A DNA stretch of 63,403 bases from a virus (IMGVR_UViG_3300026512_000012:1-63403); one strand, 5' to 3'. Positions 24,635 through 50,993 are shown, counted from the first letter of the stretch. The notes: generated from the letters alone by a model not told the origin. Program-made: numbers and translations.

Positions 24635-25009
24635 GTGGAAAGTAAAAAACAATTTTACAATCAATTAGAACAGACTATTCGTTGGAACACAATCAGGGGT
24701 AACACCCCTGATACTTACTCTAAAGATTTAGAAGTATCTATGTTGCAAGAAGAGCTTAATGAATATAAAGAAGCTACAGATTTGTCTAATACTGTTAAAG
24801 AGCTTTTAGACATATTATTTGTTACTTATGGTACATTAAGTAAATTAGGTTTGCCATCTACAGCTATTGTTGAGTGCTATGGGACAGTTATTCAATCTAA
24901 CAATCAAAAGTCTAAAACAAAAAATGCTGCAGGTAAAATTACCAAATCAGTAAATTTTGTTAAAGCTGAACCACAAATAGCAAAAATACTTAAAAAGTAT
25001 TTTCTTTAA
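24635..25009 (+). CDS. MazG/HisE-like all-alpha NTP pyrophosphohydrolase
   Basis: QEELNEY...KELLDILFV...SNNQK...GKITK. Confidence 0.82.
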   Translation: MESKKQFYNQLEQTIRWNTIRGNTPDTYSKDLEVSMLQEELNEYKEATDLSNTVKELLDILFVTYGTLSKLGLPSTAIVECYGTVIQSNNQKSKTKNAAGKITKSVNFVKAEPQIAKILKKYFL

Positions 25010-28000
25010 AGTTCATGAAAAACAGGTGGTATTACCACCTGTTTTACCATTTCCATTACACCAAAATGGTGAAACATACTAAATGGTCCATTTAATACAG
25101 CACTGCTATCTACGATATCTGCTGTATCAATATTTGTAGTCATATACAATGCTTCTTGACCTAACATAACTGCTGCTGCTCGTATCGGATGTCTGTACAA
25201 TAACATCATTATTGCTTTTTGTATTCTTATTGCGTATTTACTGAATACTATCAATCCCATTTTATTCATTTTTGATAATAACGCTGAATCAGGATATGCA
25301 TAGTTAATAAATACTTCTCTAATATTATCTGTTATTTTTTTATTTGATATGACTAATTCTTTTTTAGTCATCATTCTACCATGTTCTTTATAAAATTTCT
25401 TTTGGGTTTTAACTTGCATTTGTACAAATTGATCATATCTAGCTACAAAATCACTTTTATTTACTGCACTATATATAAATTTAAATGTTTCTGTTTTATC
25501 TGTCATATAAATTTTATTACCTATAGTCTTGTATATTTCAGGAACATCTTTTGTTCTGTCTTCCATTAATTTTACTAATCTATTTCTACTAGCTGTATCA
25601 GCTTCAGCATCTTCCATTATTAGTGTAAATAATCCAGCATCTATTAAGGGTTTAATTGCCATATTATTCATATTATTATCAATTTCTTTTATTCGCATAT
25701 CATACTTGTTAGTTTGTTCACTTAATTTTCTAGCTTCTAACTGTATTCGTTCATTACGATCTGCTATATACATATTTAATTCATTCCAAGCTTTAGTATA
25801 ATTATTTATTATATGTCGTGGATTACCACCTGTCATCATACTATACAGAAAGTTACTTATTATATTATCTGCTATTACATCAAATAGTTTTATTACTACA
25901 CTTACTTTAAATAAACTTACAAATGCTTCCCACATATTCTCTAATTTTTTTAATAATAATTTTAATGGTTCTGGCAATTGTTTAACTCCAAACATATTTG
26001 TTATACTTAATTCTCTATATCCAAACATTCCTAATAATAAATTTCTTTTAACCCATAATTCTCCACTCGTTAATGCTACTGATAATTTTCCTAACTGTAA
26101 TTCTGTTAATTCATTATATTTACTACCTAATAATTCTTTTAATAAACTCTTAGATAATGGTTTTATTTCTAGTTCTTTAGCACCTTTTTCACTTTTAATT
26201 TCTACTGCTTCTTTTAGTTTTCTTAAAGTATCTTTAAATTCTGGTGGCAATATACTAGCAATATCGCTTATCATAGGATCATTACTAAATAAATCTATTT
26301 TTACATATTCATTATTTTGAATATTTCTATGTAATGGTGTCATTTCTGCCATATCTGCTAATAACTCTTGCATTACTATTTCATTTTGTTTTGCAGATTC
26401 TTCCACATCTATTTGATGTGCTACCATTCTTCCTAATGCATTAAATCCATTTACTTCCATTCCTAAATATTTTAATTTATCTTCCATACTTACATTAAAT
26501 CTGTATTCTACAATTTTTCCTTCATTATTAAATTCAGGTGTTATTACACCTTCTAAATTTACTTTTTGCCCCTTCATTATTTTTTTATTTAATACTTCTG
26601 TATATATTTTGGCATCTTGTACTCCTTTCCATGCTATTTTAGTAGCTCCATCTATTCCACTCTTTCTAGCATTTTCATACATACTTCTACCAACTTGCCT
26701 ATCTCCTACATATCTTATAGCACTTTTATTAAATGGTTGTATTAATCTATCTGTACTAACATATAGTCCCATTCTTTCACCATTATAGTCAAATTTTGTT
26801 TTTTCTAATTCCCTTACAAATTTATACCCCCGTGCTTCTAATCTTTTTTTATCTTTCATTCTTCCTACAAGACTAGTAACAAAAGCATCATATGTCTCTC
26901 TTACAGTACCTTTTTTAGCATTCAATACATCTACATCTTTCTTTCTACTCATTACATTCTTAGCGTGTGCTGTATGCATTCTACCAAAAGCTACAACGCC
27001 TTCACTATCTTCTTTAATTAATTCTGCTAGTACATTTTTTGCAACGCTATCAGTATTTTTTAATGCTTCCAAACTTACCATTTCATCTATTGCTTCTACT
27101 ATTTCTTCATTAATCGGTTTTTCACTTCCACTTCCCATCATTCTAGCTATTGCAGTTGCATTTCTTAACTGTACTTCTGTACCTTTTCCTGTTAGCATCA
27201 TTTCTGCCAACCCTTTAACTTGAAATCTATAAAACCTCATTTCTTCTTCAGATACTTTATTACTTAACCACTTATCCAATTGTTTTAGTCTATTATCAAT
27301 AGCTTTTTCACTTGTTATAAATTTTAAAGCTTTTTCTCCATATTTACTTAGCAATAGTGCTCCATCGCTCATTTGCAACACTATTTGCAATGCTGCTGAT
27401 TCCTCCTTACTCAATTTTCTTTTAAATAATTGTTTTCCTAATAATGCTAGATTATTGGCTAATGCCATTCTTTCTTCATCTATTTGTACTGACATTAATC
27501 CTAAATTTTGTGCTAGATTATCCATAGGAGTTGTTTTCTTTATTTGTCTAATAGCAGTTTGTACTATTCCTTCTGGTTTCATCTTTAGTGCTGTCATTAG
27601 AGCTTCTAATGTTCCTGACATACTAGGACTTGCTACTAAATGCCCAAACAACCCTGCATACCATCTTGCCTTCTTCCATAGTGGATCACTTATTTTTGGT
27701 TTACTGTTAATTAATCTTTCATTCATTGTTTCACCATACTTACTTAGTGTTTCATACCATTTTTCTTCTAACCCATCTACCCATTCGTTTATTTTTGTAA
27801 ATGGAGTCTCTACTACTTTTCTCTGCATTTTTGTTTGTGCTATGGCAAATGCTTCAAGTACTACCATTGCTGCTTGACTACCTTTCATATTAGGCTTTTC
27901 ACCATTCCACATTGCTATTGCTCTAGTAACTAGTTTATTTATCCAATTCATTATTTTATTAAATAGTGTTCCACCACTCTTTTCTTCTTTTTCCATAAAC

Positions 28001-29016
28001 CCATCTAGTTTTTCAATTACTCCTTCATGAGTTACTGAATATGCTAAAAATTCTTTTAAATCATTATTAACATATTCTAATCTTTCTTTAGCTATCTCTT
28101 CTTCTATTTCTCTATTTATTACTATTTTTGGCATGAAGTCTTTATATGTTAATCTCTTCATTGCTTCTTTTCTTAATTTTTTCAATCGTGTTAATGCGTG
28201 AGCTACTTGTCCTTTAGCATTTTCCATTGCAAACACGCTTACAGCGTGTACTAGTTCATGTACAAATACTGTTACAGCACTCATTTCATTTCCATATTTA
28301 ACTGCTGTTGTATTTACATTTAGATATATTCCTTTATCTTTTACTGTGTTTATATGTCCATCATTATATTCAGCATTTTCGTCTACATACACAGCCATTT
28401 CTGGTATAGCTCTTAACATTGGTCCTAGTATTACTCGTACAACATTTTCTAAATGTTTATACATTTTATCACTAATTCCTACAGCATCCATTTTTTTCAA
28501 CTTTCTCATTAATCCTAATACTGATTCTACACTATTTATTTTACTTGCTTTTAGCACTTCTTCATAGTTTTTACTATCGTTAGTTTTACCATTAGCCCCA
28601 TACCTACCTATGTCTTCTATACTACCTTTTTCAGTATCCACTAACTTAGCATTTAATGTATATCTTTTTGCACTTCTTGGAAACAGTGCCTCTACTATTA
28701 CATTCCCTTCAGTACTGGCCTTACCACCTACAATATTTATTGGTTTATTTTTATATTTTGGTTTTAGTATATTCATTTTTGCTACTTGACTTATAGTTAA
28801 ACTAACTTTAGCTTGTTTAATACCTCCTGTAGCCTCTCTAAGCCGTCCTAACTCTTCTACTACATTCAACATCTCTTGTTCTTCAGGACTCAATAGCATT
28901 CCTTGTAGGTCCATCTTTTTTACTTTTATATAATCTTCTACGGCTTTCTTTTCATCCAAACTAGCATCACTATTTTGGACTCTATTTAATACATTCTCAT
29001 AACCACATTTAGCCAT
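25006..29016 (-). CDS. large virion/ejection protein with zincin HExxH; probable equivalent of the N4 vRNAP C-terminal domain
   Basis: FVHELVHA (H..H at 28246-28260) with downstream EFLAY; 1336 aa; only Cys is residue 4; lies downstream of the polymerase gene. Confidence 0.7.
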   Translation of the reverse strand: MAKCGYENVLNRVQNSDASLDEKKAVEDYIKVKKMDLQGMLLSPEEQEMLNVVEELGRLREATGGIKQAKVSLTISQVAKMNILKPKYKNKPINIVGGKASTEGNVIVEALFPRSAKRYTLNAKLVDTEKGSIEDIGRYGANGKTNDSKNYEEVLKASKINSVESVLGLMRKLKKMDAVGISDKMYKHLENVVRVILGPMLRAIPEMAVYVDENAEYNDGHINTVKDKGIYLNVNTTAVKYGNEMSAVTVFVHELVHAVSVFAMENAKGQVAHALTRLKKLRKEAMKRLTYKDFMPKIVINREIEEEIAKERLEYVNNDLKEFLAYSVTHEGVIEKLDGFMEKEEKSGGTLFNKIMNWINKLVTRAIAMWNGEKPNMKGSQAAMVVLEAFAIAQTKMQRKVVETPFTKINEWVDGLEEKWYETLSKYGETMNERLINSKPKISDPLWKKARWYAGLFGHLVASPSMSGTLEALMTALKMKPEGIVQTAIRQIKKTTPMDNLAQNLGLMSVQIDEERMALANNLALLGKQLFKRKLSKEESAALQIVLQMSDGALLLSKYGEKALKFITSEKAIDNRLKQLDKWLSNKVSEEEMRFYRFQVKGLAEMMLTGKGTEVQLRNATAIARMMGSGSEKPINEEIVEAIDEMVSLEALKNTDSVAKNVLAELIKEDSEGVVAFGRMHTAHAKNVMSRKKDVDVLNAKKGTVRETYDAFVTSLVGRMKDKKRLEARGYKFVRELEKTKFDYNGERMGLYVSTDRLIQPFNKSAIRYVGDRQVGRSMYENARKSGIDGATKIAWKGVQDAKIYTEVLNKKIMKGQKVNLEGVITPEFNNEGKIVEYRFNVSMEDKLKYLGMEVNGFNALGRMVAHQIDVEESAKQNEIVMQELLADMAEMTPLHRNIQNNEYVKIDLFSNDPMISDIASILPPEFKDTLRKLKEAVEIKSEKGAKELEIKPLSKSLLKELLGSKYNELTELQLGKLSVALTSGELWVKRNLLLGMFGYRELSITNMFGVKQLPEPLKLLLKKLENMWEAFVSLFKVSVVIKLFDVIADNIISNFLYSMMTGGNPRHIINNYTKAWNELNMYIADRNERIQLEARKLSEQTNKYDMRIKEIDNNMNNMAIKPLIDAGLFTLIMEDAEADTASRNRLVKLMEDRTKDVPEIYKTIGNKIYMTDKTETFKFIYSAVNKSDFVARYDQFVQMQVKTQKKFYKEHGRMMTKKELVISNKKITDNIREVFINYAYPDSALLSKMNKMGLIVFSKYAIRIQKAIMMLLYRHPIRAAAVMLGQEALYMTTNIDTADIVDSSAVLNGPFSMFHHFGVMEMVKQVVIPPVFHEL

Positions 29017-32000
29017 TTAACATCCTTTTTCATTTACATTTAACAATTCTTCTGCTACATTTGTTGATATCGTATTGAATAAATCTTTAATTATATTTTT
29101 ACTAGATAAATCTTTTCTTTCTAAAAATGCATCAGTAAGTAGATTTTTTAATTCTTCTTTATCTTTGTTTGGTAATTGATTAAATAAATCTATTAACCAA
29201 TTACTAAATTTCTTCCACCAACCCCATGCTTCACCTTTTTGTCTAACAGCTTGTTCACCTATAGCTTGTACTAATGCTTCTTCACTTCCCCATTTTTTAA
29301 TAGCTTCTTGTACTATTGGGGTATTTTTAAACCAATGTATATAAAAATGTGCATATTCATGTGAAGGCGTATCAGTAGTAGCTATACTTGTGTTTATCAG
29401 TATTTTCATAGCATCTAAATCTGCCATACCTTTAATTCTATTAGTATTACTCTTTTGAAAGTATTCAAATCTGTATTCATCAGGGATTAACTCTTCATGT
29501 GGGAATGTATATACATTTGCACTAGGGGTGTCAAGTACCTCTTGAGAAACTAATTCACGATTTTCATAATGTGTGATGATATAAGGTGAAACACCATCTT
29601 CATGGTAGTCTATTGTTTTTATCCAACTACCTTCTTTATTATAATACTCTTTTCGGGATAATAAGCCATCTTCTGAGTACATTGCCCTAATACCTATTCT
29701 ACGCCCTATTTTATCTATTTCTCCTACTATTGTTTGGTAATTCCCATAATATATATTTTCTTCTAATAAAGTACCTTTACCACTTTGTAAATCTATATCT
29801 GCTTTTTTTTCAAACCATTCATCTTCATACATATTATAAACTTTGCTTATAGTAACACTATGGTTATTTGAAATATGTCTATCAACAATTTTTATATTGT
29901 TATTGTTATACTCTATATAAGGTTTAGTAATATCATTCTTATCACCTTTATATCTCATTACTATAGTTTCGGTATTAAGATTATTATTTTTTATATCATA
30001 TTTTAGTAATTCTGTCCATCCATTTAGTTTTCTTTTTATAGGAATGTACTCATCAGTACTATTGTCAGCTCTATCCCACCAGGAATATTCATCACCAAAA
30101 TTGCTAGCACTAAAAGCTATTAATTTTCCATTTTGAAATGCAATATATTTACTTCCTGCATATTTTTCGTTCCACATAGTCCAGGAATCTTTAGTAAGCT
30201 TACCATTATCATCAGTGTAAGTTAAACACCATGGATTGGCACTTTTACCCCAGTAATGGTTTATTATTTTTCTTACAGCTAATTGACCATTTTTTGTGTT
30301 ATCCACGCTGTACAACACTATTTCTCCAACATCTTTATTTTTTACTATTTTTTTATTTGTAAATTCTGGTATTGTGTCAGGATTTAACTTAGCACTTTTA
30401 TATGTATCTTGCTTTATATCTTCACCATATTTATCAAATATTTCATTAGGATTATTGAATTGCATAGGATCTATCTTTTTTGTAGCTGCTAGTCTAACTG
30501 CTCCTATCATTTTTTCACCATCTTCTGGTAGTAGTAAATTGCCGTCAATAGTCCATTTAATAGCGATATTATAATATTTGTTTTGATCTTTTTCTTTTAT
30601 GATACTATTATTATCAATGTAAGTTTCTATACTATCTAATACTTGTTCAATATTTTGTAAATCAGGTCTTTTTTTATGTAGTCTATTACTATATTCTTTT
30701 CTTTTTTTATTTCCTATTTGATATAAATTATTAACTGATTGATTACTAATAATTTCATTAGGACTCTCTATATACTCAATTTCTGGATAAAGTTTAGCTA
30801 ATCTATTCACCATTTGTTTAACTAGATCTTTATCGTATCCTATATCAGTACTACCAGTAGTTTGAAATTCTATTGTATTATCATTACTACTATTATTTAC
30901 TTCTTTTTTAATATTAGATTGGGATTTATTCATATCTACCTCACCGTTCCAACCTAATTTACTTAATATATTTTTGTCTCCTACTATGATTAATTGTTCC
31001 TTAGCTCTACTAACAGCTGTATAACCACTCATAGCCTTCTTTAATGATTTAGTATTACTATCATTATTACCACCCATTTTGACAGCAGTATCCCAAATTA
31101 CTGTATGTATAGTTTGGCCTTGTGCTTTATAAGTAGTTACTCCATATGCATATCCTATAGCAACAGCACTAGGAGTCATTTCCTGCAGTCTTGCAATAGT
31201 CTTCAGCATACCAAAATTAACTTCCTTATCATTTTCTTCTGTTATAAGTGTACTAGTTTCGGTACCGTTATCTTGTATTTCATTTTTATAAATTTCTGTA
31301 TATTCCTGCATAGCTTGTTTATACAATTCTTGTATTTCACCATTTCTGCTTTGTAATAAAGTTTGCATATCTTTGAATATACTTAAAGGAATTACTATAG
31401 TTGTTTCTATTTCTTTATCAGCTAATTTATATTTTAGAGTAACTGCAGATAATTTTACATCATTTTTATACATAACTGAGTATAATATTTTTCTACCTCT
31501 TACATAATTTGCTATAAGAGAGTTCTCAGCTATCTGTGCTGGTGTTGCATCTTCAACTTTTGTAACTTTAAAAACCATACCATTGGTATAGTTTGTATTT
31601 GTAATACCACTAGTTAAAGCACTTTCAAATAATACTACTTGATCCTTACCAGCAATTAATGGATTAGCTTCAGGTTTATTATCTTTAAATAATGCTTTTC
31701 TAATTTTATTATTAAACTCAGCAATATTTTTGTTATTAAATGCTACATAGGCTATTCGCTTACCTTGTGCAATATTTTTATTAAATAATCCTACAATTGC
31801 TTTCCATGTGGCACTTTTACTATTGTCAAAATGCTTACTTAATATAAACCCAACTTCTCCATCAGATGGCATACTGCTAACATCTAAAGACTTGTTGGCA
31901 TTTGGAATTTTAATAGCTCTATCACGCCTTTTTAGCAATGTTTCTACTAGACTTGCTACATGTGAAATTACACTAAACAACTTACTATCTACATTTTGTC

Positions 32001-35000
32001 TTTGTTGTTTTGATAGTGTCATTACCTTAATTCCGTTTAGTACTTCTATAGTATTTGAACCAAGTTTCTCCTGTTGAGACATTCCTATTACTCTTGCCAT
32101 TATAGGGCTTAAAACCTCTATGCTAGATACAGGAGGCAATTGGTGATAGTCACCTAACATCACTATACTGAACTTATGCTTAGCATTTGTCAATATATTT
32201 GATAATGCTACTAATTTTTTAGTATCATCTATTGATAGCATACTTGCTTCGTCAACAACTAACACAGCTGGTCCGAATTCTAATTGTGCTTGTAATGCTG
32301 TTAGCAGTGAAAACCTGCCATTAGGTATACTGATATTTGTCATTTCATCATATTCCATTTCTGGTTTATCAGTAGTACCAACTTTCATTCCTGCCAGTAA
32401 GGATGATATAGTTCGGATATCTTTTCTTATAGATGTCCCACTCATTGTTGTAGTCATACTTTCTAATACATTTGTAGCCTGGTGTGTAACTGCTGCCCCT
32501 ATGAATTTTATAGGTGTATTCGATGTTTCAGCAAGTAATTCAATTGCTCTCCCAATAACAGTTGATTTTCCTGTACCACCCATTCCTTGTACTATCAAGA
32601 GGCTATCTTCAACTTTATTAGATGTTCTTGTAAAAAGTTCAACAGCCTTATCCAATAATTTTTTCTGATCTTCATTAGCTTCAAACTTACCTTGCAATTT
32701 ATATCTATCTTTTTCTGCAAGTGTATTGTTACTATTATTATTACTACTATTACTATTACTATTACTACTATCAATAGATTTTAATAAATTTTCCGTAGTT
32801 AGTTCATTGTCAGTTAGATTTAATTCATATATTAAATTAATACCATCTTTTAATGAATCTAATGAACCTTCATTACTTATAGTATCATAAGCTTTTTGTT
32901 GTAGTTCTGTTAGCTTTTTACCATTAGTTTTATTTTCATAGGCTTTTTTTAATACATCCCATTTTACACCCAATGAGTTGAGAAAATCATCTACAACCTG
33001 TGTATGTAGACTATAAGCCTTTTTCCTATTATTCCTAGAAAAACTATTTCCTTTATCATCTACTTTAGTAGTTATTTCTCCAGTAACATTAGTTCTATTT
33101 TCAGTACTCATATTTTCTAATAGTGTACTTAATAATTTGTGTAAATTTTCTTTTTCAGTTATTTTATTATCGTCTATCTTTTCTTGTATAACATTCTTAT
33201 ATGCTTTTACTAGTGTCTTTATGAACAGCCCTTTACCTTTACTGCTCCATCTACCATTCCCAATATTATGTGTAGAATGCTCTAAAAATTCTACACCACC
33301 TCTTTTAGTAATTTCTTTAGTAATTTCTTTATGTGTTTTTAATTTAAGTTCTATCAACTTTTGCATTAACTCTGTATCATGTTCATCACCTTTAGCTCCT
33401 TCTGGTATCTCTCTAATTTGAGCATTATTTGCTTTATACCATGCCTCAACACTATGTCCCCATACATTCGCAGCTGTTCGTTTTTGTCCATTTTTAAACC
33501 AAACTCTACTAACTTTTTCAGGGGCTTTTAATTTCCATTCTTTGGGAGGTTCAATATCAAATTCTGATTTTGATGCACTACCTCTAGCATAACTTACATT
33601 TGTTAAAGCTACCCCTAAAGGATCTTCGGATTTAGTAGATATTTCAATACCTTGTATATTACTATTATTATTAATTGTTGTATGCTTAGTATTTATATCT
33701 TTATTCTTAAAATCTTCTGCTATCGCTATTAATGCAGTAACATGATTAATTTGTTCTCCTTTAGCTGTTCCGCTATATCGTAATTTACTAGCATTATTTA
33801 TTATATCTAAATTATTAAGAATAACATTTCGTCTTTTTTCCAACACCTTGTAATCACGATTGTAACCATCAGGTAATATATTGTATTTTAACCATTTATA
33901 ATATGCTATAGAAGCAGCATTATTGCCACCAACATAATAATCTTCAGGCTTTTTAACATAGTTTTCCTTAGTAACAAATGGATTACCAAAATTAATAGGT
34001 TTACCATTTCTCATAACCCATAAACCTTCGTCTGGATCTATTCTTGTAATAACTATCTTATTGAGTATATCTAATATGTCTTTATCAGATATTTTATCAC
34101 TAGCAGTATTTGGTTGTACTGTTTTATTATTATTACCATTTTTATTTAATCCTAATATATCTCTCATTTGCTGTTTCCAATCAGAATCCATCATATTAAC
34201 AGTTGGTATTCCTTTTCTTCTAGCCATTTCAACAGCTTGCCCAGTACCACCGTCTGGTCTTAAAGGGTTCTTAGATTCTTTTGCGTAAAAGATTACAAAA
34301 TCTACAGGTTTGTCTAAATTTTTACCAAATACTTGGAATGTATTTCTTGCATGTAAATCTAAGGAATACCCACTGAGGTTAGCACCAGCTGGATGAATTT
34401 CTTTTGCTATAGTACGAACTTTATCATTGGCATCATCTGCAGTAAAAATATTTTTATTAGTTATTTTATATTCTGGGTTATGAAATTTAAGGTTATTTTC
34501 AGGGATTACATTACCATTTTTATCTGTAGAAATCCAGTTACCATTAATCTGTTTATTCCTAACAGGTATCCCTGTTGTGGTGTCATATTTCATACGCACA
34601 CCTTCAAATGCTTTATCTGCTCCATTAGCATGTCCACTATTTAAAGAATACCCTTCAGCTTCTAACCATTTAGATATTTCATTCATTTTTTCCATTACAT
34701 CTATAGGTGTTTCTCTACTACCTACACCTGCATATACCATAGTTTTTTGCCCAGGTACATATTTAGGTAACTTATCAAATTTTGGTGTACTAGTAGGTTC
34801 TTTAATACCTTTCAGCTTATTTAGCATTTTATTAGCATAATCTCTTCGAGTTTTCCAATATGCAAAGTATCTAGTTTTCTTGTAATTATCTTTGGAAATA
34901 TCGTCATCATCAAACTCAAGTGTGTCTATAAATTTATTATAATTTTTTTCACTGTATGATTCTGCAAGCATTGTTAAAAATTTGTATCGTAGATCTTTAT

Positions 35001-35349
35001 CTTCTCTAGTAGTTAGTTTTCTACCTAATTCTTCCTCCAAATCCCCTATATAATCTTTTACTGAAAATTTACCACCATCAATATAACTAGTAATATTAAA
35101 ACTCTCATCTTCTATATTAAAATTTAACAAATCTTTTGCTTTGATTATGTTACCATCTTTATCTTTTGCTGGTAATCTATTTATTAACTCTTCATTTTTT
35201 TTTGTCGGTTTGAACTCCCCAAACTCTGTTGTATAGTCATCCATTTGTGAAATTAAATCTAGCAATTGTTTCTTTACAGCTTTTGATAATTTTTCATTAT
35301 TACTTAATTCTATAGCTCTCTCATACATTCTATTTATATTACATTTCAT
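29017..35349 (-). CDS. polyvalent virion cargo protein: DprA/SLOG-like + DUF4326-like + NADAR-like + SF1B helicase + WC-motif domain + MORN-like repeats + zincin metallopeptidase
   Basis: YAGVGSRETP/SGHANGAD/LHARN/GGTGQA; FGNPF; SVEAWY..LKLKTH; GMGGTGKST/VVDEASM/GDYHQLPPV/TTYKAQGQT/YTAVSRA; NPWCL; HEYAH. Start set to the TAATG-coupled ATG at 35349 (MKCN), not the TTG at 35355. Confidence 0.85.
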   Translation of the reverse strand: MKCNINRMYERAIELSNNEKLSKAVKKQLLDLISQMDDYTTEFGEFKPTKKNEELINRLPAKDKDGNIIKAKDLLNFNIEDESFNITSYIDGGKFSVKDYIGDLEEELGRKLTTREDKDLRYKFLTMLAESYSEKNYNKFIDTLEFDDDDISKDNYKKTRYFAYWKTRRDYANKMLNKLKGIKEPTSTPKFDKLPKYVPGQKTMVYAGVGSRETPIDVMEKMNEISKWLEAEGYSLNSGHANGADKAFEGVRMKYDTTTGIPVRNKQINGNWISTDKNGNVIPENNLKFHNPEYKITNKNIFTADDANDKVRTIAKEIHPAGANLSGYSLDLHARNTFQVFGKNLDKPVDFVIFYAKESKNPLRPDGGTGQAVEMARRKGIPTVNMMDSDWKQQMRDILGLNKNGNNNKTVQPNTASDKISDKDILDILNKIVITRIDPDEGLWVMRNGKPINFGNPFVTKENYVKKPEDYYVGGNNAASIAYYKWLKYNILPDGYNRDYKVLEKRRNVILNNLDIINNASKLRYSGTAKGEQINHVTALIAIAEDFKNKDINTKHTTINNNSNIQGIEISTKSEDPLGVALTNVSYARGSASKSEFDIEPPKEWKLKAPEKVSRVWFKNGQKRTAANVWGHSVEAWYKANNAQIREIPEGAKGDEHDTELMQKLIELKLKTHKEITKEITKRGGVEFLEHSTHNIGNGRWSSKGKGLFIKTLVKAYKNVIQEKIDDNKITEKENLHKLLSTLLENMSTENRTNVTGEITTKVDDKGNSFSRNNRKKAYSLHTQVVDDFLNSLGVKWDVLKKAYENKTNGKKLTELQQKAYDTISNEGSLDSLKDGINLIYELNLTDNELTTENLLKSIDSSNSNSNSSNNNSNNTLAEKDRYKLQGKFEANEDQKKLLDKAVELFTRTSNKVEDSLLIVQGMGGTGKSTVIGRAIELLAETSNTPIKFIGAAVTHQATNVLESMTTTMSGTSIRKDIRTISSLLAGMKVGTTDKPEMEYDEMTNISIPNGRFSLLTALQAQLEFGPAVLVVDEASMLSIDDTKKLVALSNILTNAKHKFSIVMLGDYHQLPPVSSIEVLSPIMARVIGMSQQEKLGSNTIEVLNGIKVMTLSKQQRQNVDSKLFSVISHVASLVETLLKRRDRAIKIPNANKSLDVSSMPSDGEVGFILSKHFDNSKSATWKAIVGLFNKNIAQGKRIAYVAFNNKNIAEFNNKIRKALFKDNKPEANPLIAGKDQVVLFESALTSGITNTNYTNGMVFKVTKVEDATPAQIAENSLIANYVRGRKILYSVMYKNDVKLSAVTLKYKLADKEIETTIVIPLSIFKDMQTLLQSRNGEIQELYKQAMQEYTEIYKNEIQDNGTETSTLITEENDKEVNFGMLKTIARLQEMTPSAVAIGYAYGVTTYKAQGQTIHTVIWDTAVKMGGNNDSNTKSLKKAMSGYTAVSRAKEQLIIVGDKNILSKLGWNGEVDMNKSQSNIKKEVNNSSNDNTIEFQTTGSTDIGYDKDLVKQMVNRLAKLYPEIEYIESPNEIISNQSVNNLYQIGNKKRKEYSNRLHKKRPDLQNIEQVLDSIETYIDNNSIIKEKDQNKYYNIAIKWTIDGNLLLPEDGEKMIGAVRLAATKKIDPMQFNNPNEIFDKYGEDIKQDTYKSAKLNPDTIPEFTNKKIVKNKDVGEIVLYSVDNTKNGQLAVRKIINHYWGKSANPWCLTYTDDNGKLTKDSWTMWNEKYAGSKYIAFQNGKLIAFSASNFGDEYSWWDRADNSTDEYIPIKRKLNGWTELLKYDIKNNNLNTETIVMRYKGDKNDITKPYIEYNNNNIKIVDRHISNNHSVTISKVYNMYEDEWFEKKADIDLQSGKGTLLEENIYYGNYQTIVGEIDKIGRRIGIRAMYSEDGLLSRKEYYNKEGSWIKTIDYHEDGVSPYIITHYENRELVSQEVLDTPSANVYTFPHEELIPDEYRFEYFQKSNTNRIKGMADLDAMKILINTSIATTDTPSHEYAHFYIHWFKNTPIVQEAIKKWGSEEALVQAIGEQAVRQKGEAWGWWKKFSNWLIDLFNQLPNKDKEELKNLLTDAFLERKDLSSKNIIKDLFNTISTNVAEELLNVNEKGC

Positions 35350-38300: not shown

Positions 38301-41300
38301 TATTAATGCCCTTGCAGGAGCTTTTCTATACATCATCTGCTGGTTAGCTTTTATAACCTTACCATTTTCATTTGTACCTATTTCCAAATTATCTTGCCAT
38401 ACTGGTCCTATATTTTTTAAGGCATCAGCAGCAGTTTCAGCTTCAGCTTTGGCGGCTTCACCTAAGTATTCTACGGGTACACTTGCTATTATACTTTCTG
38501 TCTTTTTATCTGCTTCAGCAATATCATTTATCTGTGTATCAAACAATCCATCTTCAACCTTACCTGTACCTTTCCTTAGTGGGGATATATAAGCATTCTT
38601 CAATCTACTCTCAATTATCTTAGCTCCTTGATACTTAGCTTTTAATACCTGTATTCTTTTACGCAGTTTAGTTGTAATTTCCTTTTGTTCATTAATAGCT
38701 CTAACTTTAGCTTTAGCTTCCAACTCTAGTTCAGTAATACCTTTCTTTTTTTCATAATTATCTATTTTCTTTTCTAAACTGTTTACTCGATTATTCCACA
38801 TATTTATAGTATTTATATGCTTTTTATATTCTTTATCTAATTTATTTTGTTTCTTTTCTAGATCCTGTAAATCTTCTTTATAACCATTCAACATCATTAT
38901 TATCTTTTTGATAATATTCTTTATGCCGTCTTTTAACTTATCTAAACTAGTTTGTAATTCTTTTCTTTTTTTAGCCAACAATGCCTTTCCACCTCGTAGT
39001 TTAGATTGGACTACTTCTATTTCTTTAGCTAGTTCTCTATGTTCAGCTTCTATTTCTTTAATTCGATTTTTAGCAATTTCTACTGCTTTCCATGGTTTAC
39101 CTTTTTTATCCATTAAACTGCTATACTGATTTCTCCAAGCATTATATTGTTTACTAAATGTTCTAGTTATACCATTAATAGTAGCTTTTAATCCTTCATG
39201 TATTTCTTTGTAATGATTAAGTCTATTTTGATGTTCTATTAGTCTCTTACTGACATTAACAGCTGCTATTCTAGACATTTTAGCATCTTGACTTCTTTCA
39301 CCTACTTCTGGTACCCAGTCTAACATTTTACGCTCATGTAGAAACTTCGGCTCTACCTTACCATTTAATTCATCTTTTATTCTACTATATACTTCTATTG
39401 CTTTGCTTTGTTGTTTTATCGTAGCTCCCTCAGCAATACCTTTCTCCCACGCTTTTAATGGCACTGCCTTTATTACTTTATTCTCTTTCAGGCTTTGCAT
39501 GTACTTATTGTTTATCACATTTATATATTTCTTTTGTAGCTTATCCACTATTTCTGGATTATTCTTAGCTAGTGCTTTAACTTCATCTGTTACTTTCTCA
39601 CCTTTAACAAACTTGATTAGGTTTTTCATTCCTTCTTCATCAACATTCTCTTGTACAGGCTCGCTATTGTTATTATTATTGGCATTAAGCTCTGTTTCTT
39701 TCTCCTCTACTAATCTTTCAATATATTTAGGATTGTTTTGTAGTAGTTGTCTTATCTTTTTATCATCTTCCTCTGGTAGTATCAATCTATTTTCTGCATC
39801 TCTAGGTAAACTGAACACTGTTTCTAGTAATGGTTTGATTACTTTATATCCTTTATCACCTTTATACTCTTTAGTTACATCTATCCCTTGATAAATGTTA
39901 TTCTCACCATCATCACTATTTTTCTTCTCTTCCCCATCTATTATAGTCTGTAATTTATTAGGGGCAGAATCCCCATTTACTAATTTAGCTACCATTGCAT
40001 TCAGTGTGTGTACTTCGCTACTGACTGTATTTACTAGTTTCAATGTACTTGATGGTTTCAACTGTTCTTTTATTTTACTATCTTCATTTAATATATCTGC
40101 TATCAACTCGTAGGCATTTACTTCAAATTTACCATCTTTACCATCCACAGCTGCTGCATATTTCACAACTTTATTTTTACTCTCTAGTGCTCTCTTATAC
40201 TTACTATCTTCTCCATACTTCTTTATTGCTTCTTTAGCAGCATCATACACAGCTTGGTTATACTCTTTGTAGTTCCAACCATTACCATTCTTATAGTCGT
40301 TTAGTTCGGGCATCTTCACACCCATCAACTTTGCAGCATTTGCTATATAATCATCTGTTAGTGCTTTTCTATCTTTTATAAGATTTTCATTATTTCCTTT
40401 GTCATATGTTGCACTTGTCAAGTATGCCATACCTTTTTTTACAGCTATAGCATCCATATCGGGATTGTCTTTGATAATCTCATTCAGATATTCTTTCACA
40501 TCATTCTCTACTTCTTCATATGTATTTAGCAGTCTATTTCTTTTTTTCTCTTCTATTCCAGCAAATCTTTGGATACTTGCAGTATCCCCTTGTTGGAATA
40601 GTTTCGCCATACCTTCATACCCTCTGAAACCTGTATCTATTATATTCTGTCGTACTGTTGACATAGTATCTGTTAGTATCTCACTTCTAGCTCTCCTATC
40701 CAATAGTGCTTGTTTCAGGTCTTCTAATTGTTCTTTACTAGCTTTCCGTTTAAACTTCTCATCATTTACTAAATTATCAATATATTTTTTAGCTATATCA
40801 TCATTATCTATCTCTGTTATAGCATCTAATAATTCTTTTACTCTTCTAGAATCCGATCCTAACACTTCATGATCTACTTTACCATTAGGCATACTTTTCT
40901 GCATTACTTCTTTTACACGCTCATTGAATGTCTCAGCATGCTTATTGAATATGTTTAACTGTTCTTGTGTAACTGTACTATTTTGAAACCTTTGCTGTAT
41001 ATATTTTAATCTTTTAGCTATTGCCCCAAGATCGTCACCAGCTGTTAATACATCTAAATCTTTTAGATGTGTGTCTAGGCTTTTTCCATCCATTTCTTGC
41101 ATTTCTTTAGATGTTTCTGGATCTATTACTTCATTGTCTGGATTTATATCCTGTTGGTTTTTAACCGTACTTTTTATAGTTTGCTTTACTACATTTGTCA
41201 TTGGTTTTATTGCATCTAGTGTATCACCAATTATACCACTTGCTGCTCTTGGACTTGCCATATGCACACCACCTGCAACACCAAACGCTGCACCTTGCAC

Positions 41301-43754
41301 AGCATCATGAAATGCTCTATTTAATGCTTCAGTAGTATTACCATCTTTATACACACTATCAAAACCTTGTATAGCACTTTGTATTGGTTCTACTACTAAT
41401 TCTGCTAAACCACCTTCAGCCAATTTAGCTCCACCACTAATCATTCCTGTTACAAATTTAGTAGCTCTCTTTTTACCTATTGCTTTTAAGAACCCAGATA
41501 AGCCTTCTTTAGTACCTAATAGTGCTATTTTATCTCCAGTTATTTCTAATTTAGCTCCAAGATAGTTTCCTGCTAGACTCAGCAATGCATGCCCTATTGA
41601 TGCTCTCTCACCATATTTATCATAATATTCGTCCATATCCTGTTCAGTCATTAATGCACCAAGGTGTAAATCATCTGCATTTTTTACTAAGAACATTTTT
41701 AATTTATCTTTAACAGGAGCCTTCATTAATGCTTCAGTACTGTTATTTATTAATAGTGAAGCCGATTTTTTAGTATCTTCACTTAATATCATTTTATTTA
41801 AACTTTGTTCCGTCTTTTCACTTATTGCTTTACCACTAGCTTTTAATGTAGCTAATTTTGCTTCAGCTTTTGCGGATTCTTTTAAAGCTTTTTCAGCTAC
41901 TTTTCTAGCAGCTTCTTTACTCATTAACTCAGCTATACCTTTCCCAGCAAGTTTAGCTGTTGCTTTCTCAGCAATACCAGTTACAAATCCTATTGTGTAA
42001 CCAAGGCTTTTAGATGACATTTCAGGGGATGCAAATGCTGCCTTAGTCATATTCCATAGTGCATGCAGATTAACATTACCATATGTGGATGGATCAGTAG
42101 CCTCAACATTTTTAAATGCTTCTTGTTGATATTTCTCTGCTTCTTCTGATTTACTCCCTAAATTTCTTAGGAATTGTGCACCATCAATGTAATTCTCTAA
42201 TTTATCCATTCTATCTTTTGTTAGCACTTTTACATTATCAGCCATTCTATTTGCAGTTTTATCATCATAACCCCATATATACTTTGCAGATCCGTAAACA
42301 CCTGCAGAGAACAAGTCATTAGCTATCTTAGCTGTATCCCCAGCTGCTCTCGCAAAACTACCTGTAAAGCCTCTTATATTAGTACCTGTCCTATCTACCC
42401 AGCCTTCTTCTTCAGGGGCTACAGTTACAGGTCTATTCAAGTAATTAATATAAGCATTCTTACCTAATTCATAATATTCTTTCCCAGTAGTATTATTGCT
42501 ATCAGTCCTATTTAAATTTTTGCTACCATTAGCACCTAATAAATGAGCAGCAAATGTTTTACCTATTAAATCTCCCATATCCTTTGAAGAACTTTTAAAT
42601 TTCTTCATGTAGTCTACGATTGATTCTAATGCTACTTTATCTTGTACACTAGGATTTTTTAAGAAATCATCTTTACTTTTAATACCGTATTTACCTGTCC
42701 AATTATCTGGATTATTTAATCCCTTACTATCTGTTCCTTTTTTAACCATTCCTAGGTCTTGTAGTCTCATTGCTCCGAACTGATAGCCACCTATATAACT
42801 ATGGCCAGGTTTCATATCTTCACTATAATTACCACTACTTTCTCTCATTTTTAATGTATTAAGCATTTGTAACAATAAGTCACTATCCATTTTCACATTC
42901 TTAGACGATGCATGGTTATATGTATCTTTAGAATCTGCTATCTTAGCTATATCAGTTAAGCTCATACCTTTTTCAGTATCACCTTCAGCATTACCCCAGA
43001 TACTACCATCTTTAACTATTTCTGTATAGCTTCTACCTGCTTTATCTTCATAGTGCTTCCTATCTCCTAATAGATATTTTCTACCATTTAAATCTTGTTG
43101 CCCACCGTGGAGATATGCTTCAAATCCTTTAGCAGTATCTACATCATTAAGCATCAATCCATTTATACCATCTCTAGCTGGTTCATAACCACCTGTCATA
43201 CCTGGCTTCTCATACTTTGCATAGTTTTGTATCAATTGTGTTTCAGGGTCTATACCGCTGTCAGCATCAACTGTAAAGTATCCTGCTTTCTCATAACCAT
43301 CTTTTAAATTTCCATGATATATACCACCTATTTTACCATGTATTATTTCGTGATTATCTACTTTTCTGAAGGTTTTATCTTTAGGTTCCCAATAATAACC
43401 ACTATCAACAAAATCACTTGTTATTTGTTGCCTATGGGCATTACTATCTTCATTATATATCTTATTTTGGTTTGAATACACATTACCATTTATTACTGAT
43501 ATACTGTCATCCATATTACCTAATTCGTTTACTTTCTGTTTTCTCCAATAATTTATTTGATTATCATTGTTACCATACTTGCCATTAAGTTGTTCTATTT
43601 TTTCTTGTTTTCTTTGCAATAAATTTTGTATTTTATCCTCAGATTTATTTTGAGATAACTCTGGTTGTGCAGATTTAATTTCAGGAGTATTTTGTTGTGT
43701 TAGTTCTGATGCAGTATCTACATCATTCTGTGCTAGTATTTCAGCGATAGTCAT
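35349..43754 (-). CDS. N4-like virion-encapsidated single-subunit RNA polymerase with N-terminal lysozyme-like domain
   Basis: RYMLDSAGANPQTGK, motif A ETDAVTSG, motif B RALLKPPFMTFQYGAG, motif C VHDA; RESSGNY..GGYQFG..AAHLLG near the N-terminus; no Cys except the last residue. Confidence 0.92.
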   Translation of the reverse strand: MTIAEILAQNDVDTASELTQQNTPEIKSAQPELSQNKSEDKIQNLLQRKQEKIEQLNGKYGNNDNQINYWRKQKVNELGNMDDSISVINGNVYSNQNKIYNEDSNAHRQQITSDFVDSGYYWEPKDKTFRKVDNHEIIHGKIGGIYHGNLKDGYEKAGYFTVDADSGIDPETQLIQNYAKYEKPGMTGGYEPARDGINGLMLNDVDTAKGFEAYLHGGQQDLNGRKYLLGDRKHYEDKAGRSYTEIVKDGSIWGNAEGDTEKGMSLTDIAKIADSKDTYNHASSKNVKMDSDLLLQMLNTLKMRESSGNYSEDMKPGHSYIGGYQFGAMRLQDLGMVKKGTDSKGLNNPDNWTGKYGIKSKDDFLKNPSVQDKVALESIVDYMKKFKSSSKDMGDLIGKTFAAHLLGANGSKNLNRTDSNNTTGKEYYELGKNAYINYLNRPVTVAPEEEGWVDRTGTNIRGFTGSFARAAGDTAKIANDLFSAGVYGSAKYIWGYDDKTANRMADNVKVLTKDRMDKLENYIDGAQFLRNLGSKSEEAEKYQQEAFKNVEATDPSTYGNVNLHALWNMTKAAFASPEMSSKSLGYTIGFVTGIAEKATAKLAGKGIAELMSKEAARKVAEKALKESAKAEAKLATLKASGKAISEKTEQSLNKMILSEDTKKSASLLINNSTEALMKAPVKDKLKMFLVKNADDLHLGALMTEQDMDEYYDKYGERASIGHALLSLAGNYLGAKLEITGDKIALLGTKEGLSGFLKAIGKKRATKFVTGMISGGAKLAEGGLAELVVEPIQSAIQGFDSVYKDGNTTEALNRAFHDAVQGAAFGVAGGVHMASPRAASGIIGDTLDAIKPMTNVVKQTIKSTVKNQQDINPDNEVIDPETSKEMQEMDGKSLDTHLKDLDVLTAGDDLGAIAKRLKYIQQRFQNSTVTQEQLNIFNKHAETFNERVKEVMQKSMPNGKVDHEVLGSDSRRVKELLDAITEIDNDDIAKKYIDNLVNDEKFKRKASKEQLEDLKQALLDRRARSEILTDTMSTVRQNIIDTGFRGYEGMAKLFQQGDTASIQRFAGIEEKKRNRLLNTYEEVENDVKEYLNEIIKDNPDMDAIAVKKGMAYLTSATYDKGNNENLIKDRKALTDDYIANAAKLMGVKMPELNDYKNGNGWNYKEYNQAVYDAAKEAIKKYGEDSKYKRALESKNKVVKYAAAVDGKDGKFEVNAYELIADILNEDSKIKEQLKPSSTLKLVNTVSSEVHTLNAMVAKLVNGDSAPNKLQTIIDGEEKKNSDDGENNIYQGIDVTKEYKGDKGYKVIKPLLETVFSLPRDAENRLILPEEDDKKIRQLLQNNPKYIERLVEEKETELNANNNNNSEPVQENVDEEGMKNLIKFVKGEKVTDEVKALAKNNPEIVDKLQKKYINVINNKYMQSLKENKVIKAVPLKAWEKGIAEGATIKQQSKAIEVYSRIKDELNGKVEPKFLHERKMLDWVPEVGERSQDAKMSRIAAVNVSKRLIEHQNRLNHYKEIHEGLKATINGITRTFSKQYNAWRNQYSSLMDKKGKPWKAVEIAKNRIKEIEAEHRELAKEIEVVQSKLRGGKALLAKKRKELQTSLDKLKDGIKNIIKKIIMMLNGYKEDLQDLEKKQNKLDKEYKKHINTINMWNNRVNSLEKKIDNYEKKKGITELELEAKAKVRAINEQKEITTKLRKRIQVLKAKYQGAKIIESRLKNAYISPLRKGTGKVEDGLFDTQINDIAEADKKTESIIASVPVEYLGEAAKAEAETAADALKNIGPVWQDNLEIGTNENGKVIKANQQMMYRKAPARALIYTKPKGTDDDGGEVFKETALAMVLALKELLGSRGYEVPMTAEDVTNDYGVENVTPDVLEYYRKIGRPIKYLSDSVGKNTLKLMGLKRKKDSKVDNPKERYSMLEQSMGAHVIELGRELGLINVKETGALDMGDMLFKAENPEVSEKEISDAREARAKLLGDGAEGVKVVTFTVNKDVAVNAGKKFRELELELIVPANVAGPLYSKPNINGEIEIRRNSITKAPAMAQAHVKKIMDIEWYVKGIDDGNKKMEQLLKMNKNVLLKAMGYIDPEVLKGQTYTLRQSNISVNRDIEREIDGVLKVVDDIKEGRAANSIWFKWFISKNTRYMLDSAGANPQTGKKLARWLIKANRKVANINLNNKTDRTLLSLAIALSFGFDIDKESIEDSLKFVEELVKDNNYNNLMEQWQNLVNGNEMTEFNINGTKIGLKNIGHVADGLEALSLMHKAINDGSMQVKTTLQIETDAVTSGFGLKLLQYAADLDVGEVTVKEWLAKTGMFVDGTNEAFPDIVANGKLVDAYKTLAVALSDKAIDESITQQEDNKEEYKAADYGVGLREGYNWFKGLLKEMSKVVDGITIVTPEARALLKPPFMTFQYGAGFVKNIKEMTDVIMAKVEKEVLNSGSLEDVEQMLKAFGVDDNAIDLMNYAMKNDWEGYVIDTENGKTLGEVMRKTVTDSYGTVVEQVLKDKFEHIIEINKAVNSAMKIAYDVWNMKAMQKLEEMAKKGTNVGITKDMIEKVFADKELMKYFPVIAGPLSEGIEDSIAIFKERLLDSLFRGNDILSKDKLGRGVAFKIQDGKPQQISYSALKKWLAEAGAAGGVIPIHTLDAAIMGAIADKYGVLEVHDAIIMGLASVEDIVREYNKRVILVSKKWNYLGEVSKTLERVLDLLTDEELEEVVSESENDPKKVLTELWSYAQSNEKFRKELYSKHITIQHMVLTKESGYEYYPNAKANDKIKEDIMKAYNKLPLVLRNSFGIKDDIKGC

Positions 43755-46314: not shown

Positions 46315-46323
46315 TATATACTC

Positions 46324-46905
46324 CTAATATGTTTCAGATACATGTTTGTATTTAGGTGCTGTTACGGTGAATCCAGATTTTGCAGCAGCTTCCATACTAG
46401 CTTCTTTACCAGCTAGTAGGTTTTCATACTGGGTAGCAGCTAAACTGTAATCTTTAGCATACTTATGTCGTGTGTCTGCTAATTGTCGGTTTAGCAATTT
46501 AGCATTTTTATTTGTGTTATGCATGCTATACCAATCCATACCTATTCCGTACAGACCTTTACCTGCTTGTACCATATCTGAGCTCATAAATCCACCGCTA
46601 ATTACTTTAGTTTCCATTTGGCCTGTCTTAGGATTAAGCTGGGTTACCGTAGTATCATTGGGCTTACGAAAATTATCCCAGAAACTACCACTTTTACCTT
46701 TATAGAATAAATCATTAGCAAATCCACTTACATGTCCATTATTAGTCATTGCTTTATTTATAATTGGGGTTACATTAGTACCTGTATTAAACAAGTTATT
46801 TACATCTACTCCGCCTATTAAATTATTAAGATATGTGTTAAAATCACTACTTGCTAGTGATACTGTATCAGGCATTGTATTAAATACAGAAGGTTTTGTT
46901 GTCAT
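46324..46905 (-). CDS. small ejection/internal virion protein (N4 gp52 position)
   Basis: 193 aa, Cys-free, GLYGIG segment followed by a coiled coil; synteny. Confidence 0.6.
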   Translation of the reverse strand: MTTKPSVFNTMPDTVSLASSDFNTYLNNLIGGVDVNNLFNTGTNVTPIINKAMTNNGHVSGFANDLFYKGKSGSFWDNFRKPNDTTVTQLNPKTGQMETKVISGGFMSSDMVQAGKGLYGIGMDWYSMHNTNKNAKLLNRQLADTRHKYAKDYSLAATQYENLLAGKEASMEAAAKSGFTVTAPKYKHVSETY

Positions 46906-46936
46906 TATATACTCCTAGTTATACTCATTACAAACA

Positions 46937-49900: not shown

Positions 49901-50056
49901 AGTTTTACTATAACCCTCAATACCATTTTGTTGATAGGCTTTAAACAATTGTAATTTAGTATTTCTCCACAAGTCTCCTTGCAATGATGTAGCATCTTTC
50001 AATGCTATTACATCATAACTTCTACTTACAACTGTTTTACTGCTAAATAAGCCCAT
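46937..50056 (-). CDS. virion structural protein with hydrophobic C-terminal segments (N4 gp53-like)
   Basis: MGLFSSKT start; KVKWYQRGFFGFILIIATIAI followed by further hydrophobic helices. Confidence 0.75.
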   Translation of the reverse strand: MGLFSSKTVVSRSYDVIALKDATSLQGDLWRNTKLQLFKAYQQNGIEGYSKTAWHMLHKIRKKFSTDYMVKAGVATENTFTAYTYDKDKLEQKLRNMVGNQTVVLESYKVDEESTDINDMQYVLGDLTNVKCKVAGANGVYAFIINGGNTSRTLNSVNSTTDKVLVISKWGNNYETRIEPVPIAMATITATDITGIMHPTDALEYMEDYQNQLWYWLKRPRDLIGTIEDGSLIATKTVIAPTQISDSITTTDGTITTVGVVSEPTNTFGIDIVITGKAKSIINSSTSSSSTTDSDTVPEDTSTSSSTESTDTDYYNIDETTITQTTNVGEYTAVYSVVGDRKTITTTIETKTYTAGTRIDDDGNEVNTVTEVVRDVTVTEYEPVGYKITVIVTQPVISCMPLITTKRKPTIAKDSYVNYRALDLKKISAYDFIKTAYLSIPSGSGWQSDTVISIANKDTVGLQTVLINENILIDNPNTKVVRSTVGNIYIDSYQATAVFTKSPLEQLTVDTVTVTGKKQDGTIVKAQIQKTPQLMEATQGFVLTPVITLRYAKKTLYTHTAKKTDKLKKVLNPLGIDNEGVDNLIDTVSDNADVYTASIVSGLRIFNEDKTLVTDDTHARAKIMYMLADMITGNGMVLDTAKTYHIHSYSMDASYTYTIEQNVIDNFDNTDEYGLLNITGHRKKYYMRTVREVIESYSYTTCEHDEEPYDVVVDVYSQIVYVYRIVGNTAYRYKYHDITMTLTSADGSYTVTTKNKVNNSWFNHNSTPSADLQKLIIIYPEVINRKLSIKEYSAIFNDNIFLFIYARKVTKVKWYQRGFFGFILIIATIAIMIAFPALGALKGFAGYLVAGAEAMVVGYGLSVMFPNMSPWVQMILTIVIMHGANLAAKSLATTTAEAATKTITIDNIIADIKTYITKMSTLDKILMGGNLVTTGYQEYVKGEMEDAMEYTEKYIDMVSKATKKLDDKMREFGVQEDSVAIFADSMLDMVEGEMYDEVEVSDVYMSVDFGSKMLSYVSSVDYQADKLDVNNLNHTNIMV

Positions 50057-50067
50057 ATTCTATTCTT

Positions 50068-50970: not shown

Positions 50971-50993
50971 TTATTATCCTTTTTAATTTTTAA

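Follow-up and report, generated by a model that had tools for sequence, protein, structure and literature searches.

Cysteines at the facing ends of a split virion RNA polymerase of N4 type and its cargo protein: a possible disulfide-tethered chain

Why would three giant proteins that are almost free of cysteine carry this residue at the very ends that face each other in gene order? The question is raised by a viral stretch of DNA, IMGVR_UViG_3300026512_000012:1-63403 (hereafter the window, i.e., the whole analysed stretch of 63,403 nucleotides), in which three consecutive minus-strand open reading frames (ORFs), namely P0001, P0002, and P0003, occupy 25006..43754. We will argue that P0001 and P0003 are two pieces of a split virion RNA polymerase (vRNAP) of the phage N4 type, with P0002 as a candidate cargo protein between them. 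Translation and a cysteine count give P0001 a single cysteine, which is its final residue (Cys2801, ending ..DIKGC). P0002 starts with MKC, ends with ..EKGC, and has one internal cysteine (Cys1708, in NPWCL), and P0003 starts with MAKC, where Cys4 is its sole cysteine. Together, the three proteins thus hold five cysteines in 6,247 residues, four of which lie at the two gene junctions, and the outer ends (the N-terminus of P0001 and the C-terminus of P0003) have none. The original prediction, made from the sequence of the window, had described exactly this distribution, and the translations bear it out in every detail.

At junction 1 (P0001/P0002), the DNA reads ggt tgt TAA, with an ATG that begins on the final A of this TAA and is followed by aaa tgt; junction 2 (P0002/P0003) has the sequence gga tgt TAA ATG gct aaa tgt. 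Both junctions have the form AARGGNTGTTAA(A)TG, containing a Shine-Dalgarno-like AAGG, and both have a stop and a start codon; only junction 2 is in frame. The remaining 14 minus-strand ORFs of the virion block (43822-63217, minus strand) hold 14 cysteines in 6,233 residues (0.22%), compared with 85 in 7,618 residues (about 1.1%) for the plus-strand ORFs, i.e., the replication genes at 324-25009 (totals summed by hand). The cysteine purge covers the whole virion module, yet the terminal placement of four of the five cysteines is far beyond chance. No near-identical relative of the window was found by megablast of a phage collection, nor among viral contigs with a single window protein as the query.

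Two successive stretches of one and the same profile, PHROG 2206 ('virion RNA polymerase'), align with P0001 and P0003: residues 1326-2765 of P0001 align with profile positions 865-1930 of 3406 (E 6.8e-54) and P0003 with positions 2285-3044 (E 3.8e-128). P0002 has no vRNAP match, and the combination shows a real split into which a cargo has been inserted. The original prediction had equated P0001 with the vRNAP. The profile match agrees with this in part, as P0001 is only the piece with N-terminal domain (NTD) plus polymerase domain (Pol), the large C-terminal domain (CTD) being held by P0003.

For the polymerase domain, a profile (alignment A2, with P0001 residues 1650-2801 as its first row) was required: it matches the N4 vRNAP structures 2po4, 3c2p, and 9pnr in the PDB (E~1e-46), and a single-sequence phmmer search of the PDB with the Pol region of P0001 gave no match. 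By this homology, P0001 carries a T7-like single-subunit polymerase domain related to N4 mini-vRNAP. The profile alignment stops at about N4 residue 2110, the place of the Pol-CTD linker ('linker 2') of N4 vRNAP (PMC13492108), of which residues 2102-2123 are disordered (PMC13434306). On the other side of the break, tblastn matches P0003 to the vRNAP CTD within the vRNAP gene of 443 phage records, and BLAST aligns it with residues 2444-3470 of gp50, the N4 vRNAP, so that it is the large CTD, homologous to gp50 residues ~2120-3500. Pfam returned nothing useful for either piece. As judged from homology, the locus is an N4-type vRNAP cut at the flexible Pol-CTD linker, with a polyvalent cargo between its pieces. 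Instead of the single polypeptide of ~3,500 aa that is typical of this family, it has three ORFs of 2801, 2110, and 1336 aa, and instead of a total absence of cysteine, its vRNAP pieces have no internal and one terminal cysteine each. Packaging in the virion and ejection may be presumed from this homology and from the place of the genes in the cysteine-poor virion block.

Fused and split polymerases

Is the arrangement peculiar to the window? A profile scan of viral contigs yielded 80 vRNAP loci (numbered with an L), namely 33 with a complete fused vRNAP (at least 3000 aa), 30 with a partial one, 15 with split pieces, and two with short ORFs (L043 and L046). All 33 complete fused proteins, with 117,280 residues in total, are devoid of cysteine, as are the 30 partial and the two short ORFs. 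N4 gp50 itself, which the original prediction had described as Cys-free and ~3500 aa long, has 3,500 residues and no cysteine, and gp51 and gp52 have none either. In the 15 split-piece loci, on the other hand, the only or nearly only cysteine is found at position 3-7.

True split junctions are Cys-paired without exception (18 of 18, in 13 chains including the window and Alteromonas phage AD45-P1). The cysteine of the upstream protein lies 0-6 residues from its C-terminus and that of the downstream protein 1-5 residues past its Met, as in AD45-P1, where ..HCKQ is followed by MTIC.. in the next ORF. None of the 26 outer chain ends has a cysteine, and the middle links (those of L004, L028, and L037, and P0002) have exactly one per end. 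In total, the 13 chains hold 42 cysteines in 51,431 residues, 36 of which are at junctions; four of the six internal ones are found in one 204-aa link. Terminal cysteines thus accompany split genes and are absent from fused ones, which is the outcome expected under the comparative check that the original prediction had set out.

The database homologs of P0003 tell the same story for one side of the break. Besides the window protein there are 19, of which 14 have an intact N-terminus; all 14 carry a cysteine at position 3-4, and 13 have no further one. The remaining five comprise three N-terminally truncated sequences, a Pol+CTD fusion, and a protein covering 59% of the query, the latter two without cysteine. 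In the alignment of 15 split CTD homologs, which are 21-37% identical, C4 is an invariant column. As a control, the 493 other ORFs of the same loci (1.16% cysteine) have a cysteine at residues 2-7 in 5.9% and in the last seven residues in 10.8% of cases.

Might the terminal cysteine codons be a by-product of ribosome-binding or translational coupling signals, of chance, or of annotation errors? The AAGG at both window junctions would fit the former, as the original prediction had conceded for part of the motif, and cysteines near truncated ends have been dismissed as sequence errors (PMC11445570). Elsewhere, the junction DNA is unrelated, the reading frames differ, the stop-start spacing ranges from -13 to +39 nt, the distance from cysteine to protein end varies, and both TGT and TGC are used as codons (read by eye from printed junction strings). 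Breaks are confined to two linkers and come in three types (NTD+Pol/CTD, NTD/Pol+CTD, and NTD/Pol/CTD). Since split sites, frames, junction DNA, and codons vary by locus, neither a ribosome-binding effect nor chance accounts for the cysteines, and the caveat is removed. Moreover, the cysteine is kept at the low protein identities given above, the control frequencies are small, the junctions that resemble frameshifts are exactly those without cysteine, and the AD45 stop codon was re-sequenced (PMC3821669). We therefore give this explanation practically no credit. The terminal cysteines follow a both-or-none pairing across junctions that is conserved and has arisen repeatedly. The cysteines 'near truncated ends' of PMC11445570 may be the same signal.

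Repeated origin was examined with a FastTree tree of 63 CTD sequences, a quick tree with long branches, for which reason only several origins are claimed. On this tree, the NTD/Pol splits need four changes, with starred branches forcing at least three, and the Pol/CTD split needs two, a single origin being possible. The L004 and L028/L037 splits are nested inside the Pol/CTD-split clade. From the sequences, the split junctions thus appear to have several origins.

Some junctions stand apart. Those of L016 (NTD/Pol, 5427-5634) and L043 (3431-3545, where the break falls within the polymerase domain) have overlapping open frames and no start codon, which makes them resemble frameshifts, be it from errors in sequencing or from events of very recent date, and they carry no cysteine. 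A cysteine pair may thus distinguish true fissions from frameshift errors. The ORF of L046 starts inside the Pol domain, 154 nt from the contig end. L004 encodes the above 204-aa mini-link (3644-4258; MC.. to ..RCNLKGAA) between its NTD and Pol pieces; with its four further internal cysteines it could be a small metal-binding adaptor, and Pfam has no match for it.

The cargo protein and other cargo chains

P0002 matches PHROG profiles for a DprA-like protein (phrog_768, E 2.5e-48) and a Dda-like helicase (phrog_325, E 6.3e-34), as well as Pfam AAA_30 and AAA_19. Its internal Cys1708 aligns with Cys2282 (SPWCI) of P0034 (26% identity, E 5e-13); the two proteins have a PWC[LI] motif in common. 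In this domain, which has no name, Cys1708 appears to have a functional role, and it is the one internal cysteine that the chain tolerates. A further module of ~120 aa (HEYAHHY..GSEEALVQ..WW) is unusually highly conserved, with 50-70% identity across otherwise unrelated giant proteins (P0043-P0184), in which its position is variable. From its sequence, we take it to be, in all probability, the kind of zincin-type metallopeptidase module that polyvalent proteins carry. A HMMER scan with its 120 residues against 1.84 billion representatives retrieved 295 proteins at E<=1e-3, and Pfam gave only a weak DUF5844 match. Among cultured phages, tblastn with this module matched one record, itself uncultured, which leaves no isolate with a cargo link like P0002. 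P0002 combines a helicase of the Dda type with DprA-like and PWC domains and the HExxH module in one chain and has the make-up of a polyvalent protein.

Homologs of P0002 have only single modules in common with it, yet they show the same cysteine placement. In 99 module-bearing proteins of at least 1000 aa (233,630 residues), 124 of the 179 cysteines lie <=8 residues from an end; internally, cysteine makes up 0.0235%. Both ends carry a cysteine in 37 of these proteins (29 of them without an internal one), only the N-terminus in 25, only the C-terminus in 25, and neither in 12; some of more than 5,000 aa hold a single cysteine, at the C-terminus. The 63 module-carrying loci of this second set contain 91 distinct consecutive plus-strand ORF pairs, of which 50 are adjacent and Cys-purged. 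Here, cysteines are found on both sides of the junction in 34 pairs, on neither side in 16, and on one side in none. An exact test on this table, calculated by hand, gives ~2e-13, a value inflated by related loci. One-sided cases occur only beside Cys-containing ORFs.

The original prediction had suggested that modular cargo can be slotted into the chain, and both locus sets bear this out: in the window, P0002 lies without vRNAP homology between Pol and CTD, and L099 has two such links. Its four-link chain runs from Pol (..GNC) over a DprA-like link (MNC..ENC) and a further link (MEC..ECE) to the CTD (MSNC..), so that cargo insertion at this place is recurrent. As to how a chain becomes cut, a GIY-YIG homing-endonuclease gene (L093, 8320-9105; Pfam E 1.2e-13) lies exactly between links ending ..IKCS and starting MAC.., suggesting mobile endonuclease insertion as one fission route.

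Several side observations concern single loci of these sets. When L129 and L131 are compared, an in-frame deletion is seen in L129 that has taken away ~8 residues from the end of the upstream link, the junction itself, and a stretch of ~245 residues from the downstream link, so that the two links are fused and both junction cysteines are lost. In L087/L088 (~5390), the downstream link (MSK..NC) uses a non-ATG start, 9 nt past the upstream stop; a GTG is indicated by the database version P0065, which begins with V. ORF calling restricted to ATG masks the N-terminal cysteine of this link. Cys-containing ORFs lie between or before links in L029/L069 (2281-6555), L105 (11679-13838), L132 (6895-8829), and L141 (7104-8366), and ORFs of ~300-375 aa with 16-18 cysteines directly follow the last link in L096 (14695-15822), L144 (13056-13970), and L146 (13134-14042). 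Pfam had no match for the 1424-aa intervening ORF of L029 or for the Cys-rich ORFs adjoining the chains of L096, L144, L146, L141, and L132.

The features of the window are collected in Table 1. Directly upstream of P0001, two Cys-free ORFs take the position of gp51/gp52. This assignment follows from position only, because there is no family match: Pfam had none for these two ORFs (830 and 193 aa) or for the upstream ORF of 1039 aa. Neither of the two is coupled to the chain, as no cysteine faces P0001.

Table 1. Location of the three chain ORFs, their cysteine codons, and other features in the window
Feature	Position	Strand	Remark
P0001	35349..43754	-	2801 aa; predicted NTD + Pol piece of split N4-type vRNAP, first link
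P0002	29017..35349 (ATG at 35349)	-	2110 aa; putative polyvalent cargo protein, middle link
P0003	25006..29016	-	1336 aa; predicted CTD piece of split vRNAP, last link
Cys2801 codon TGT of P0001	35352..35354	-	Last sense codon; candidate C-side coupler, junction 1
Cys3 codon TGT of P0002	35341..35343	-	Candidate N-side coupler, junction 1
Cys2110 codon TGT of P0002	29020..29022	-	Last sense codon; candidate C-side coupler, junction 2
Cys4 codon TGT of P0003	29005..29007	-	Candidate N-side coupler, junction 2; invariant column in 15 split CTD homologs
Lysozyme-like domain, P0001 NTD residues 296-434	42453..42869	-	phrog_27932 'baseplate hub subunit and tail lysozyme', E 1.7e-23
DprA-like domain, P0002 residues 202-405	34135..34746	-	PHROG profile match
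Dda/RecD-like helicase region, P0002 residues 714-1461	30967..33210	-	Pfam + PHROG matches
Internal Cys1708 codon (NPWCL) of P0002	30226..30228	-	Conserved residue of its domain
HEYAH..GSEEALVQ module, P0002 residues 1964-2083	29101..29460	-	HExxH; invariant H34, E35, H38
HELVH (HExxH) motif of CTD, P0003 H253-H257	28246..28260	-	H253, E254, H257 invariant in alignment A1
Two Cys-free ORFs, 830 + 193 aa	43822..46905	-	Directly upstream of P0001; gp51/gp52 position by N4 gene order

What the paired cysteines may do

In N4-like phages, the vRNAP is thought to pass unfolded through a tail channel of ~35 Å, and how an enzyme of 3,500 residues is packed and passed through in an ordered way is an open question (PMC13434306). 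We think it reasonably probable that, in the split systems, the pieces are bound head to tail by a disulfide between chains, which would keep them together during packaging and ejection. The C-terminal cysteine of each piece would bond with the N-terminal cysteine of the next (P0001-S-S-P0002-S-S-P0003), once assembly is over, either inside the capsid or following lysis. The resulting train would be co-packaged at fixed stoichiometry, thread the narrow tail in order, as N4's single 3,500-aa chain would, and separate upon meeting thioredoxin or glutathione in the cytoplasm. The original prediction, which had proposed such a chain, is thereby partly supported: its comparative side holds, and we infer the disulfide nature of the link, its formation after assembly, and the part that it would play in packaging, ejection, and release.

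What points in this direction is, first, the both-or-none rule together with the grammar of the chains (the first link with a cysteine at its C-terminus, middle links at both, the last at its N-terminus), from which the cysteines across a junction act together. Second, no other conserved residue is found near them, so a simple chemical link fits better than an enzyme-recognised motif. Third, the stubs past the bridge are at most six residues long, which would leave the bridged train almost linear. Finally, the AD45 virion proteins run as two gel bands of 270 and 175 kDa (PMC3821669), which fits a link that is lost on a standard gel and argues against ligation by a peptide bond.

Several points weigh against a disulfide tether. 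The assembly of phages takes place in the reducing cytoplasm, so the bridge would need to form later. No candidate thiol oxidase emerges from the Cys-rich neighbour ORFs, given their lack of Pfam matches, and, beyond the cysteines, we found no conserved determinant that would favour head-to-tail partners over homodimers or rings. The two AD45 bands (PMC3821669), from a gel that may or may not have contained reductant, would be explained just as well if the pieces had no covalent link. The published view, derived from 191 vRNAP homologs with a cysteine frequency of 0.00075%, is that cysteine is excluded to avoid periplasmic disulfides (PMC11445570). In five loci (L090, L092, L105, L132, and L141), a piece starts with MxxC, and no upstream partner with a C-terminal cysteine is seen for it. 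The counts include related loci, de-duplicated by junction peptide only, and hence are not all independent events, and the Pol/CTD split may have just one or two origins on the CTD tree. A complex prediction that paired the C-terminal 150 residues of the Pol piece with the first 150 of P0002 scored 0.14 (mark 0.32) and is taken as evidence in neither direction.

The thiols could also pair through a metal ion (for instance Zn or Cu, possibly with HExxH histidines) or through another sulfur link, such as a thioether or persulfide. Formation during assembly, in the reducing cytoplasm, would be within reach of a metal bridge and difficult for a disulfide. The both-or-none pairing requires only that two cysteines act jointly, and HExxH motifs lie near junction 2 on both sides (P0002 residues 1964-2083 and P0003 H253-H257). 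At many junctions, however, including junction 1 and the NTD/Pol junctions, a nearby HExxH is missing, a metal site made of just two thiolates is weak, and no other conserved ligand adjoins the junction cysteines. We thus regard this alternative as unlikely.

The five loci with an N-terminal cysteine and no visible partner would be easier to understand if each terminal cysteine were independently attached to something else (a protein of the capsid core or portal, a lipid, or a cofactor) or served as the 'cysteine switch' of a zincin, HExxH modules being frequent in these proteins. Against this, the chain grammar, the absence of cysteine from all 26 outer ends, and the absence of one-sided cases among the 50 pairs point to pairing, and fused vRNAPs retain HExxH, yet have no cysteine. 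Such roles seem improbable to us.

Cysteines on both sides of a break are also the arrangement of a split intein, and the stubs are short (0-6 residues); the pieces could be joined into one polypeptide by an intein-free, Cys-dependent trans-splicing or a reaction resembling native chemical ligation, with the stubs trimmed. This is very improbable, for the 0-6 residues after the C-side cysteine and the 1-5 between Met1 and the N-side cysteine are too few for a Hint fold, there is no conserved ligase motif, and the AD45 virion contains two separate polypeptides whose sizes are as predicted (PMC3821669).

Three further candidates were rejected outright. A split intein proper is incompatible with all 18 junctions, which have no intein sequence and only the few residues just given on either side. 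Recoding or read-through does not fit frames and spacings that differ among junctions, with only window junction 2 in frame. Bacterial lipoproteins have a signal peptide of ~15-25 residues with the lipobox at its end, followed by the cysteine; here, the cysteine stands at position 2-7, right after Met, and there is no hydrophobic leader.

Much of the background was already known, namely the Cys-free nature of N4 vRNAP, the low cysteine frequency of its homologs, the AD45 fission, and the polyvalent proteins. Literature searches returned no description of paired terminal cysteines in fissioned vRNAPs; the supplementary cysteine tables of PMC11445570 may bear on this point. Where such cysteines were noticed, they were read as errors (PMC11445570) or as a sign of non-injection (PMC3821669). 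The rule in the field is that such proteins lack cysteine altogether. The pattern turns this reading around, as cysteine is found exactly and only where the chain is cut, and it predicts a covalent, reducible tether. If this is true, giant polyvalent cargo would be exchangeable as modules and could be shuffled by gene insertion with single-file delivery kept. A practical annotation rule would be that a cysteine pair marks a true gene fission and its absence a frameshift error. More tentatively, and with slightly less than even confidence, we propose that tailed phages use a general, motif-free 'cysteine coupler' code, in which giant proteins from separate genes (vRNAP domains and interchangeable anti-host cargo modules), each with a single cysteine close to the end or ends to be joined, would be linked after translation into reducible trains that may exceed 6,000-10,000 residues, threaded through the tail in gene order, and uncoupled by host reductants, their cargo being shuffled by gene insertion that is sometimes seeded by homing endonucleases.

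Comparison with known systems

N4 gp50 is the natural reference. It has a homologous polymerase domain and CTD, no internal cysteine is found in the corresponding vRNAP pieces of the window, and it lies downstream of gp52 and gp51, just as the window vRNAP lies downstream of two Cys-free ORFs. It is ejected, and its NTD, Pol, and CTD are like beads on flexible linkers (PMC13434306, PMC13492108). Unlike the window, N4 keeps gp50 as one chain without any cysteine, whereas the chain of the window is cut at the Pol-CTD linker, has a 2,110-aa cargo there, and carries one cysteine per cut end.

The closest parallel in a cultured N4 relative is Alteromonas phage vB_AmaP_AD45, whose ORF127 and ORF126 have the same Pol/CTD fission and a cysteine pair. 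Its stop codon has been confirmed, and virion gels showed the two polypeptides (PMC3821669). It has two links and no cargo link, unlike the window. Its authors took the cysteines as a sign that these proteins are not injected; their terminal, paired placement goes unremarked (PMC3821669).

P0002 and its relatives, in turn, resemble the polyvalent proteins described by Iyer et al. 2017 (PMC5512222) in their giant size, in the combination of several domains (helicase, DprA-like, and metallopeptidase-type modules), and in their virion or late-gene setting, N4-vRNAP-like forms included. Those of Iyer et al. are single polypeptides, possibly cut by their own peptidases, whereas the window has separate gene products that are apparently coupled; the words cysteine, disulfide, thiol, and split do not occur in the main text of PMC5512222.

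Split inteins share with the window a protein divided over two genes and a cysteine at the break; unlike them, the chain of the window has no intein sequence. A last comparison is with two-chain (AB-type) toxins, in which one disulfide holds the chains together across a membrane and reduction in the cytosol releases them. The chains of these toxins arise by proteolytic nicking of one precursor, not from separate genes, and their disulfide is not at the extreme termini, so the likeness to the chain of the window is a functional analogy only, without homology.

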